IMG/VR virus record: IMGVR_UViG_2671181134_000015
Length of the DNA: 38,518 nt
Direction: 5' to 3' (one strand)
Origin: a virus
Lineage: Duplodnaviria > Heunggongvirae > Uroviricota > Caudoviricetes
Shown: piece by piece, positions 1,294 through 2,581 of the stretch
Numbering within the stretch: position 1 is the stretch's first letter
How the letters are laid out: the number at the start of each line of letters is the position of its first letter
Made by a program: the position numbers and the translations under genes
The notes under the pieces: generated by a model
The model's database searches: none
What the model was told of the DNA's origin: nothing
The model's input: only the letters and a program-made list of their open reading frames with translations

Positions 1294-1412
1294 TACCCAA
1301 TTTTTCTGAATCTAAAAAGCGCCTGCGGGCGGTTTTTGCATGAGATTAATTAACTGAAAATAAAAGGGATTTATTTTCAGGTGTCCATATAATGTCCATC
1401 TTTGAAACAAAA

Positions 1413-1450
1413 AAGCCCGCAGTTTTTACGCTACGGGCTTTGTTTTTCTT
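1413..1450. terminator. Bidirectional intrinsic terminator-like hairpin (AAGCCCG ... CGGGCTT with A-run upstream and T-run downstream)
   Basis: 7-bp GC-rich stem at 1413-1419 and 1434-1440, T-run 1441-1450 on + strand and A-run 1405-1412 giving a U-run on the minus strand; sits at the 3' end of minus-strand hok copy A. A weaker hairpin plus T5 at about 1319-1338 may be the proximal serS terminator. Confidence 0.5.
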
Positions 1451-1467
1451 TGTGACTTGCGTGTGAG

Positions 1468-1835
1468 GGTGCTACTTTCGACCGAACCTTTGGCAACCGG
1501 ATAGCGGGGGCTTTCACCCCCGCTGCGGTTTCTTACGGTTTACACTGCAAGAACGCCGCAAATTCTGACCACATGATGTTAAGTCTGAACTCACACGGCG
1601 AACGGTGTATCATCCAGACTGTCAACAACATGGTTAAGCATAAAATGCTCACGATGATCGTTTTTTGCGGCATAGCGCTTGCTCCTTTTTCAAAGAGGCG
1701 CTAACCTTCCACTTGCGAAGGTTAGATGGTTAGGGCCTCGGGTTAAACAAATGTTTGACTCGGGGCCTTTTCACATCCGGCCTTCAGGTAATCCTTCCAG
1801 CCGTCAGCCGAAAGGCACCCACGTGTAATCTACTG
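1468..1835. repeat. Direct repeat copy A (about 370 bp) carrying a hok-type locus
   Basis: Aligns by eye with 1942-2312 at about 470-bp offset; near-identical across the toxin ORF and more divergent in the leader region upstream of it. Confidence 0.8.
1533..1673 (-). CDS. Hok/Gef-family type I toxin, copy A (46 aa)
   Basis: Minus-strand ORF MPQKTIIVSILCLTMLLTVWMIHRSPCEFRLNIMWSEFAAFLQCKP: N-terminal transmembrane helix, then CEFR and EFAAF resembling the Hok CEIR and EVAAF signatures; GGAG 8 nt upstream of ATG; below the 60-aa cutoff of the ORF track. Confidence 0.6.
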   Translation of the reverse strand: MPQKTIIVSILCLTMLLTVWMIHRSPCEFRLNIMWSEFAAFLQCKP

Positions 1836-1889
1836 ATTTCCCTTTGTGCGCGCAATGCTCAGTGTTGAAACTGTTTAGGGGGGGGCGGC

Positions 1890-1912
1890 AAAAAAGCCCG
1901 CATATTGCGGGC
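1890..1912 (-). terminator. Intrinsic terminator for minus-strand transcripts (hok copy B)
   Basis: GCCCGCA-TAT-TGCGGGC hairpin at 1896-1912 preceded on + strand by A6 (1890-1895), i.e. hairpin followed by U6 on the minus strand. Confidence 0.6.
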
Positions 1913-1941
1913 AAATACGTCTGTAATCCAATGGAGAAAGG

Positions 1942-2312
1942 GGTGCCATATCGACTGAACCCGACAACCGGATAGCGGGGCCGTTCACCCCCGCTGCGGT
2001 TTCTTACTGTTTACACTGCAAGAACGCCGCAAATTCTGACCACATGATGTTAAGTCTGAACTCACACGGCGAACGGTGTATCATCCAGATGGCCAACAAC
2101 ATGGTTAAGCATAAAATGCTCACGATGATCGTTTTTTGCGGCATAGCGCTTGACTCCTTTTACAGGGAGGCGCTAACCTTCCACTTGTCTAGGGTAGGAA
2201 TGGTTAGGGCCTCGGGTTAAACAATATGTTTGACTCGGGGCCTTTCCACATCCGGCCTTCAGGTTTTCCTTCCAGCCGTCAGCCGAAAGGCACCCGCGCG
2301 TAATGTACTGGT
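1942..2312. repeat. Direct repeat copy B carrying the second hok-type locus; right end overlaps the 3' end of ogr
   Basis: Aligns with 1468-1835; see copy A. Confidence 0.8.
2004..2144 (-). CDS. Hok/Gef-family type I toxin, copy B (46 aa)
   Basis: MPQKTIIVSILCLTMLLAIWMIHRSPCEFRLNIMWSEFAAFLQCKQ; intact frame, 3 amino-acid differences from copy A; GGAG upstream. Confidence 0.6.
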   Translation of the reverse strand: MPQKTIIVSILCLTMLLAIWMIHRSPCEFRLNIMWSEFAAFLQCKQ

Positions 2313-2581
2313 TTTAAAGTCATACCGCAATCCTCCAGTTGTAGCGTTAACTGACTGCGTCCCTGATGGGATTTGCGCATTGTCTCCCGTGGAATATCTT
2401 TATCGTGGAAGATCAACTGAGGCTGGCCAATAATTCTGTGCACACTTTCCATTGTTGAAAATGTGGCGCTGCACTCAAGGTTATTGCACTGATAGTATTT
2501 GTAGCGGATGGTGCCGGTATCATTGGCGGCTTTACTGGTACGGATCCGGGCAGATGCGCCGCAGAATGGACAATGAAACAT
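2279..2581 (-). CDS. ogr: Ogr/Delta-type zinc-finger late-gene transcriptional activator
   Basis: MFHCPFCG...YYQCNNLECSATF four-Cys zinc finger as in P2 Ogr; start taken at MFHCP (ORF track extends 17 codons further upstream); about 28 aa longer at the C-terminus than P2 Ogr. Confidence 0.8.
   Translation of the reverse strand: MFHCPFCGASARIRTSKAANDTGTIRYKYYQCNNLECSATFSTMESVHRIIGQPQLIFHDKDIPRETMRKSHQGRSQLTLQLEDCGMTLKPVHYARVPFG

Follow-up and report, generated by a model that had tools for sequence, protein, structure and literature searches.

The gene for the late-gene activator Ogr in a P2-like prophage of Escherichia coli runs on, at its 3' end, through the promoter of the toxin gene that follows it on the same strand. 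The DNA that specifies the final residues of this Ogr consists of the predicted promoter of a hok/sok-type cassette and of 17 nt at the start of the hok mRNA, and the residues that are conserved in this stretch are held in place by constraint on the nucleotides. The result is a real but ordinary gene overlap. We consider it likely that the tail is a by-product of the joining of the ogr and hok modules and is carried as a tolerated, disordered appendage on a working Ogr.

The arrangement can be outlined simply. As in related phages, a hok/sok-type cassette lies directly after ogr, at the place where relatives without hok have the ogr terminator. The ogr frame of this lineage has no stop at the point where most relatives stop, 39-45 nt before the hok start, and runs through the hok promoter to a UGA in the 5' element of the hok mRNA. 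The sequence of the resulting tail of 17-20 residues is thus set by the promoter and the RNA start of hok, and not by any need of Ogr. Transcripts of ogr would, in addition, run on through the adjoining toxin unit, hok B, to a terminator at 1912-1896.

The prophage and its ogr gene

The window, by which we mean the whole stretch of 38,518 nt that was analyzed (IMG/VR record IMGVR_UViG_2671181134_000015), begins with serS (1-1293), and the remainder is a P2-like prophage that ends at its own integrase gene. DNA searches give E. coli as the host, and one complete genome, that of STEC17-183, is 100% identical across positions 1200-2700. The prophage is P88-like and sits in the serS terminator. 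It belongs to the genus Xuanwuvirus of the Peduoviridae, whose members P88, P88_4B11, Chuche and Citrobacter phage PhiSM are its nearest relatives among sequenced phages. In the interval from ogr to the stop of int, the sequence NZ_CP075652.1, which is 100% identical over 1200-2700, exceeds the window by about 550 bp; relative to it, the window may come from another strain or from a prophage with an internal insertion or deletion. When Rfam was searched at its gathering thresholds, nothing was found at the hok loci, and the only matches within the window were C4 antisense RNA (minus strand, 31746-31659, 86.1 bits) and, adjoining it, isrK (minus strand, 31856-31782, 69.3 bits), both above their gathering scores. 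The presence of this pair in the early region of the prophage points to a putative P1/P7-type antisense immunity element.

The ogr gene is found on the minus strand at 2279..2581, with an ATG at 2581 and a TGA stop at 2281-2279, and its 303-nt coding sequence specifies a protein of 100 amino acids inclusive of the tail. It follows the tail gene D, the homologue of which (PF05954) ends at 2625, and lies near the att end of the prophage. A GGGGG Shine-Dalgarno sequence is located 8 nt upstream of the ATG, and RefSeq annotates the same 303-nt coding sequence (WP_062864355.1) in a genome whose sequence across the junction of the prophage is identical to that of the window. A mechanical list of open reading frames begins ogr at an ATG at 2632, which would give a protein of 117 amino acids and an overlap with the end of D. 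This version was rejected in favor of the start at 2581, and hence of the 100-residue protein, because the homologues, the Shine-Dalgarno sequence and RefSeq all agree. One IMG gene call in the 83-residue cluster has a similar spurious N-terminal extension.

The resemblance of the zinc-finger core to that of P2 Ogr, which an earlier note on this DNA had remarked upon, is borne out by a match of residues 3-51 to the Pfam family Ogr_Delta (PF04606; 58.7 bits against a cut-off of 26.3) and by 52% identity with P2 Ogr over residues 1-54. The zinc-binding cysteines are C4, C7, C32 and C37. From its family membership, the protein is predicted to activate late promoters via RNA polymerase. Modeling with AlphaFold2, on an alignment of only 5 sequences, returned residues 1-49 with confidence and a pLDDT below 50 for residues 50-97.

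The length of Ogr among relatives

In P2 the ogr gene is 219 nt long and encodes 72 amino acids, and the earlier note was correct in stating that the present frame is about 28 codons longer. The closest relatives, which are P88-like Xuanwuvirus phages and prophages, have an Ogr of 83-86 amino acids. The extension that is specific to this lineage is therefore one of 14-17 residues, and about half of the 28 codons (11-14) that are extra in comparison with P2 are normal for the genus.

This comparison draws on around 100 related loci taken from IMG/VR, species-representative genomes and public assemblies. The scan of species-representative genomes contributed 11 loci, and the breadth comes from the IMG/VR scan and from cluster look-ups. 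The majority class (~70 loci, including the P88-like phages) has an Ogr of 86 residues, with hok downstream and the ogr stop 45 nt before the hok start motif. A class of 83 residues (7 loci) also has hok downstream, with its stop 39 nt before the motif. Proteins of 79-94 residues are found at about 13 loci where no hok lies downstream, and the 100-residue class comprises 12 loci, where hok is always downstream and has its start motif 17 nt within the ORF. All of these classes share a C-terminal motif, IP...(P).SH(R/Q)G..Q(L/M).L.L, that ends near residue 82, and a 1-nt indel near codon 78 separates the 83- from the 100-residue class. The latter consists of three diverged sub-lineages with 59-62% protein identity, each of which ends in VHYARVPFG.

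The long form is common in E. coli: 121 contigs carry the exact Ogr of the window and 506 carry a sister form, and an ogr of the window type occurs in 12 of 5,426 complete genomes. Among 201 deposited phage genomes, none matches the Ogr of the window beyond residue 84, and the 100-residue form was seen only in prophages. Alignment of the homologues for their natural C-terminal length, which the earlier note had proposed, finds the long tail only where hok follows ogr. A long C-terminus is not a uniform feature of these proteins in the absence of hok, because the hok-less relatives, at 79-94 residues, are without the tail. The 100-residue state arose either by loss of a stop or, conversely, the 83- and 86-residue forms arose by gain of one. 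An intrinsic terminator is found 2-22 nt after the ogr stop in six of the seven hok-less loci that were read, which shows that the hok cassette occupies the place of the ogr terminator.

The overlap of ogr with the hok B unit

The window harbors two hok units, hok A and hok B, on the same strand and arranged in tandem with a unit length of 471-475 nt. The hok B unit, which adjoins ogr, extends over 1935..2295 (minus strand) and is made up of a leader, the hok coding sequence and a 3' fold-back element at ~1958-1941. The toxin itself, of 46 amino acids, is encoded at 2004..2144 (minus strand) and is assigned to the Hok/Gef family by RefSeq and by Pfam HOK_GEF (PF01848), with scores of 26.6 bits for hok B and 27.8 bits for hok A against a cut-off of 22. 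In a local search, the Rfam leader model RF01794 matches hok B at 2295-2133 on the minus strand with 43.9 bits (E = 3.3e-8), which is under the gathering score of 59. The minimum-energy fold of the hok B mRNA pairs nt 1-17 with the 3' element at 1958-1941 (z = -5.55), and hok mRNAs are typically closed in this way. No mok-like ORF of at least 25 amino acids, beginning with ATG, GTG or TTG upstream of hok and overlapping it, was detected; all that is open there is a run of 37 codons that lacks a start codon at the 5' end. An overlapping mok frame is typical of the R1 and K-12 loci, and the Pfam family does not require mok.

A candidate antisense gene, sok B, can be read from the sequence on the plus strand at 2150..2246. 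Its predicted promoter has a -35 hexamer TTGACT (2150-2155) and, after 18 nt, a -10 hexamer TAACCT (2174-2179), and the RNA would be about 60 nt in length, ending in a hairpin at ~2206-2246. The candidate was not flagged by a consensus promoter scan because the -10 is weak, and we take its position by analogy with that of sok in R1.

The predicted promoter of hok B lies at 2302..2330 (minus strand) and has a -35 hexamer TTGCGG (2330-2325), a 17-nt spacer and a -10 hexamer TACATT (2307-2302). In alignments of hok cassettes, including those that adjoin ogr and those that do not, these hexamers are kept throughout and the spacers are variable. Initiation would be at 2295, the position with which the first position of RF01794 aligns, and this placement comes from the Rfam leader model, at its score below the gathering threshold, and from promoter geometry; the promoter probably fires at this position. 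The first 17 nt of the mRNA, GGGUGCCUUUCGGCUGA (2279..2295, minus strand), are invariant or nearly so in ~90 hok-carrying loci, and in the ogr frame they read R-V-P-F-G-stop. The UGA of ogr corresponds to nt 15-17 of the hok mRNA, and thus lies inside the 5' element that pairs with the 3' end of the message.

The earlier note had proposed that the ogr tail and the hok promoter region overlap. This is what is found, since the predicted -35, -10 and transcription start are all within the last 17 codons of ogr. It had also counted the last 9 codons as lying inside the repeat shared by the two hok units; here the overlap stands but the count does not, the actual number being the last 11 codons and the stop. 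The gapless part of the repeat comprises 2215-2314 of copy B and 1740-1839 of copy A, with 88% identity, and recognizable similarity, in the form of the -35 hexamer, continues to 2330. A dyad upstream of the hok promoter, CAGTT-N8-AACTG with its center near -49, was considered as an Ogr-type binding site and set aside, as it is unlike the known site and so short that chance may account for it.

A terminator scan predicted no intrinsic terminator between ogr and hok, and for this reason ogr transcripts probably cross hok B. The first terminator predicted downstream of ogr is the one that follows hok B at 1896..1912 (minus strand), in which GCCCGCAATATGCGGGC is succeeded by TTTTTT. With such an overlap, transcription of ogr may interfere with the expression of hok or the reverse, as the earlier note had suggested. 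The layout also raises the possibility of a regulatory coupling, whereby ogr transcripts made upon induction would read into hok B, tie Hok to late-gene activation and so aid lysis. Ribosomes that terminate at the UGA could undo the end-to-end closure of the hok mRNA, the read-through could collide with convergent sok transcription, or both, and translation of Hok would be set free. Consistent with this putative coupling, the stop of ogr sits within the helix that closes the hok mRNA, no terminator is predicted where hok-less relatives do carry one, and the hok units of the window have 77-84% DNA identity to hok loci in Stx-converting phages. In prophage Sp5, moreover, induction activates hokW-sokW, and this locus raises the release of phage twofold (PMC8621323).

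We nonetheless regard a regulatory coupling of this kind as unlikely. Most of the hok-carrying relatives, namely those with an Ogr of 83 or 86 residues, stop ogr 39-45 nt upstream of the hok mRNA start, which means that entry of ribosomes into the hok message is not needed for whatever role hok plays in these phages. In the R1 model, furthermore, the 5' element of hok is also required for hok activation, and the direction of any effect of coupling is for this reason not predictable. The overlap is better accounted for as a by-product of the joining of the two modules with no stop between them.

The tail of Ogr as hok-cassette DNA

The tail consists of codons 81-100 and the stop (2279..2341, minus strand), and its assignment to the DNA of the hok cassette draws on an edge of homology, a jump in divergence, the codon pattern and the pLDDT. 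The edge of homology is seen at a chromosomal hok locus of EDL933, beside ykgM, where there is no ogr nearby. This locus is homologous to the window up to ~2340, which is ~10 nt beyond the -35, and it contains a TGA in the frame equivalent to that of ogr.

The jump in divergence is seen in a nearly identical prophage at the tamB site, in which D is 0.5% and codons 1-80 of ogr are 0.4% divergent from the window, as against 13% for the tail and promoter and 4-5% for hok. At the protein level, the Ogr of this prophage (P0009) is changed at 4 of 16 residues in the tail and at 1 of 84 elsewhere (Fisher p = 0.002). The jump marks a mosaic boundary at the edge of the cassette.

The codon pattern comes from a comparison of the 100-residue sub-lineages with one another. 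Their zinc cores differ at 27 of 52 third positions, whereas codons 91-101 differ at only 0-1 of 11, and in codons 81-90 the differences are spread about evenly over the three positions. This pattern reflects constraint on the nucleotides of the -10 and the RNA 5' end, with no constraint on the peptide encoded by the spacer. The conserved residues of the tail coincide exactly with the -10 hexamer, the discriminator and positions +1 to +17 of hok, and the spacer residues vary freely, as GMTL, ASQS, APHV or GISS. That the frame is open through the tail is no evidence of selection, because a random stretch of 14 codons has about an even chance of being open.

The alternative that selection maintains the tail as a functional C-terminal module of Ogr, such as a contact for RNA polymerase or a stability element, appears very improbable when set against these data. 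The widespread occurrence of the 100-residue form, and its retention with the VHYARVPFG ending in three sub-lineages that are only 59-62% identical, do leave room for a modest function. However, the conserved residues are free of synonymous change, as is expected of nucleotide constraint, while the residues of the spacer are at liberty to differ. The same DNA is found with an in-frame stop at a hok locus without ogr, and the tail is absent from most relatives and predicted to be disordered. We therefore favor module joining as the source of the tail, which probably has no function in the Ogr protein.

The hok A unit and the prophage boundary

The hok A unit is recognized by Pfam, Rfam and its fold at 1465..1820 (minus strand), with a fold-back element at ~1485-1467 and a coding sequence at 1673-1533. 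Its leader matches RF01794 at 1820-1663 on the minus strand with 48.3 bits (E = 2.2e-9) in the local search, again against a gathering score of 59, and the minimum-energy fold pairs nt 1-17 of the mRNA with its 3' end (z = -8.14). The promoter, taken from the alignments of hok cassettes, is at 1827..1855 (minus strand) and has a -35 TTGCGC and a -10 TAGATT that are 17 nt apart. An intrinsic terminator is predicted after the unit at 1412..1441 (minus strand).

An ORF beside this copy, at 1804-1914, ends in TEHCAHKGKSVDYTWVPFG and a stop (VDYTWVPFG-stop). The earlier note saw in it a diverged copy of the ogr 3' end. The resemblance on which this was founded is there, with 9 of 19 residues matching the ogr tail and the same VPFG and stop, but the ORF is not a relic of ogr; what it reads through is the hok A promoter. 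Between copies A and B, the DNA is identical at 17 of 17 positions from +1 to +17, at 5 of 6 in the -10, at 5 of 6 in the -35 and at 7 of 17 in the spacer. In the 30 nt upstream of the -35, only 10 positions are identical, which is the level expected by chance. As the likeness is confined to the promoter elements and the 5' end of the RNA, the hok promoter explains it and no ogr remnant has to be invoked. The VPFG-stop ending is simply the 5' end of the hok RNA read in that frame. Distal hok copies in other phages have the same promoter as hok A and the same sequence upstream of it, which is unrelated to ogr.

Variation in the hok units is evident in other strains. In STEC2018-607 (L114), which has the prophage at the same site and is otherwise 99-100% identical, the distal hok A has been swapped for a different allele: with respect to window positions 1433-1771, the hok A coding sequence is 32% different and its flanks 11-14%, with hok B, ogr and D unchanged. 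The units seem to be exchanged as cassettes. At the serS sites of three other E. coli (L110, L111 and L112), 2-3 hok units lie beside serS and are followed by different genes with no ogr, and the serS-proximal Hok in two of the three is identical to the product of hok A in the window (WP_001135720.1). Different elements at the serS site thus appear to share or accumulate hok units at their serS-proximal ends. Two of these loci, L111 (4076-4366) and L112 (3854-4144), contain an annotated hypothetical coding sequence of 96 residues, with a GTG start and low complexity, the stop of which is inside the -10 of a hok promoter; it forms a second instance of an upstream ORF call that enters a hok promoter, and may be spurious.

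The true boundary of the prophage is marked by the att core (attR), the 10-nt sequence CCTGCGGGCG at 1322-1331 (plus strand), which lies inside the terminator hairpin of serS. The core emerged when the window was compared both to the unoccupied site of K-12 and to the junction beside dmsA on the int side. As the window stops at the int stop codon, attL was read from a near-identical genome. It follows from the position of the core that all of the DNA from ~1332 onward is prophage, inclusive of both hok copies. Between the hok region and the int end, no copy of the att core or long direct repeat was found, the only match being one of 14 nt that is rich in G. Integration splits the serS terminator hairpin (window 1313-1340) at the att core, and the prophage side brings a new T-run (GGTTTTTGC), so that the junction again provides serS with a terminator-like structure.

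The earlier note had also entertained a prophage junction passing through the ogr and hok region. In its fuller form, the idea is that the tail is an integration scar, or the trace of an earlier prophage, with a junction through ogr and a remnant left beside copy A. The VPFG ending of the copy-A ORF and the variation in hok copy number at serS among strains might be taken to suggest as much, but the idea is contradicted by the position of the att core, upstream of both hok copies, and by the chance-level identity upstream of the -35 in copy A. It is also at odds with the order D-ogr-hok in packaged phage genomes and at no fewer than four other chromosomal sites (prpB, flk, tamB and pgsA/uvrC), and with the tandem hok pairs at ~470-nt spacing in related prophages of the 83-residue class, for example at uvrC/pgsA. 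We attach hardly any probability to it. Least credible of all is that the long ogr ORF results from a mistake in sequencing or annotation, for instance a frameshift, a suspicion for which the 1-nt indel between the 83- and 100-residue classes could be cited, given that the same 100-residue ORF recurs in 12 complete genomes, as an exact protein on 121 contigs and in IMG/VR contigs, with sister forms on hundreds more. The joining of ogr to a hok cassette within the prophage, with the tail as its by-product, remains the reading that we prefer.

Relation to known systems and significance

Both partners in this overlap belong to families that are already well known, the Ogr/Delta activators and the hok/sok cassettes, and the 100-residue coding sequence is already in RefSeq. 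A search of the literature for hok in connection with ogr, P2-like phages and phage P88 found no description of a linkage or overlap between ogr and hok. The Ogr of the window shares the four zinc cysteines and the PF04606 match with Ogr of P2, B of 186 and Delta of P4, and, as in P2-like genomes, its gene follows the tail gene D close to the att end of the prophage. Unlike P2 Ogr, it is 28 residues longer, it has no terminator after its stop, and its last 17-20 codons are hok sequence. The resemblance to the Xuanwuvirus phages P88, P88_4B11, Chuche and PhiSM is closer, and extends to the order D-ogr-hok, the hexamers of the hok promoter, the 5' end of hok and the C-terminal motif of Ogr. These phages differ in that their Ogr has 86 residues and stops ~6 nt before the -35.

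As for the toxin, the hok cassettes of the window have in common with R1 hok/sok a small hydrophobic toxin and a full-length mRNA predicted to pair at its ends, and, as candidate features, a long structured leader and an antisense gene within it. In contrast to R1, the location is chromosomal or prophage and there are two copies in tandem, the leader scores under the Rfam gathering threshold, and no mok-like ORF with a start codon was found. The hokW-sokW locus of the Stx2 prophage Sp5 is likewise a Hok/Gef cassette on a temperate phage, and both toxicity and neutralization by the antisense RNA have been demonstrated for this related system (PMC8621323). It differs in that Sp5 is a lambdoid phage, in which the cassette has neither ogr beside it nor an upstream gene that runs into its promoter.

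The main value of these observations lies in annotation and in the reading of phage genome mosaics. A C-terminus that looks conserved, such as VHYARVPFG, can reflect constraint on a promoter and an RNA and not on a peptide, and by the same token the ORF beside copy A should not be taken for the remnant of a gene. In P88-like phages, the hok cassette stands in place of the ogr terminator. Were the coupling of ogr to hok to prove real, P2-like phages would have a link between late-gene control and a type I toxin, and this would extend what is known of hokW-sokW from Stx phages to a system in which the late activator times toxin-assisted lysis.
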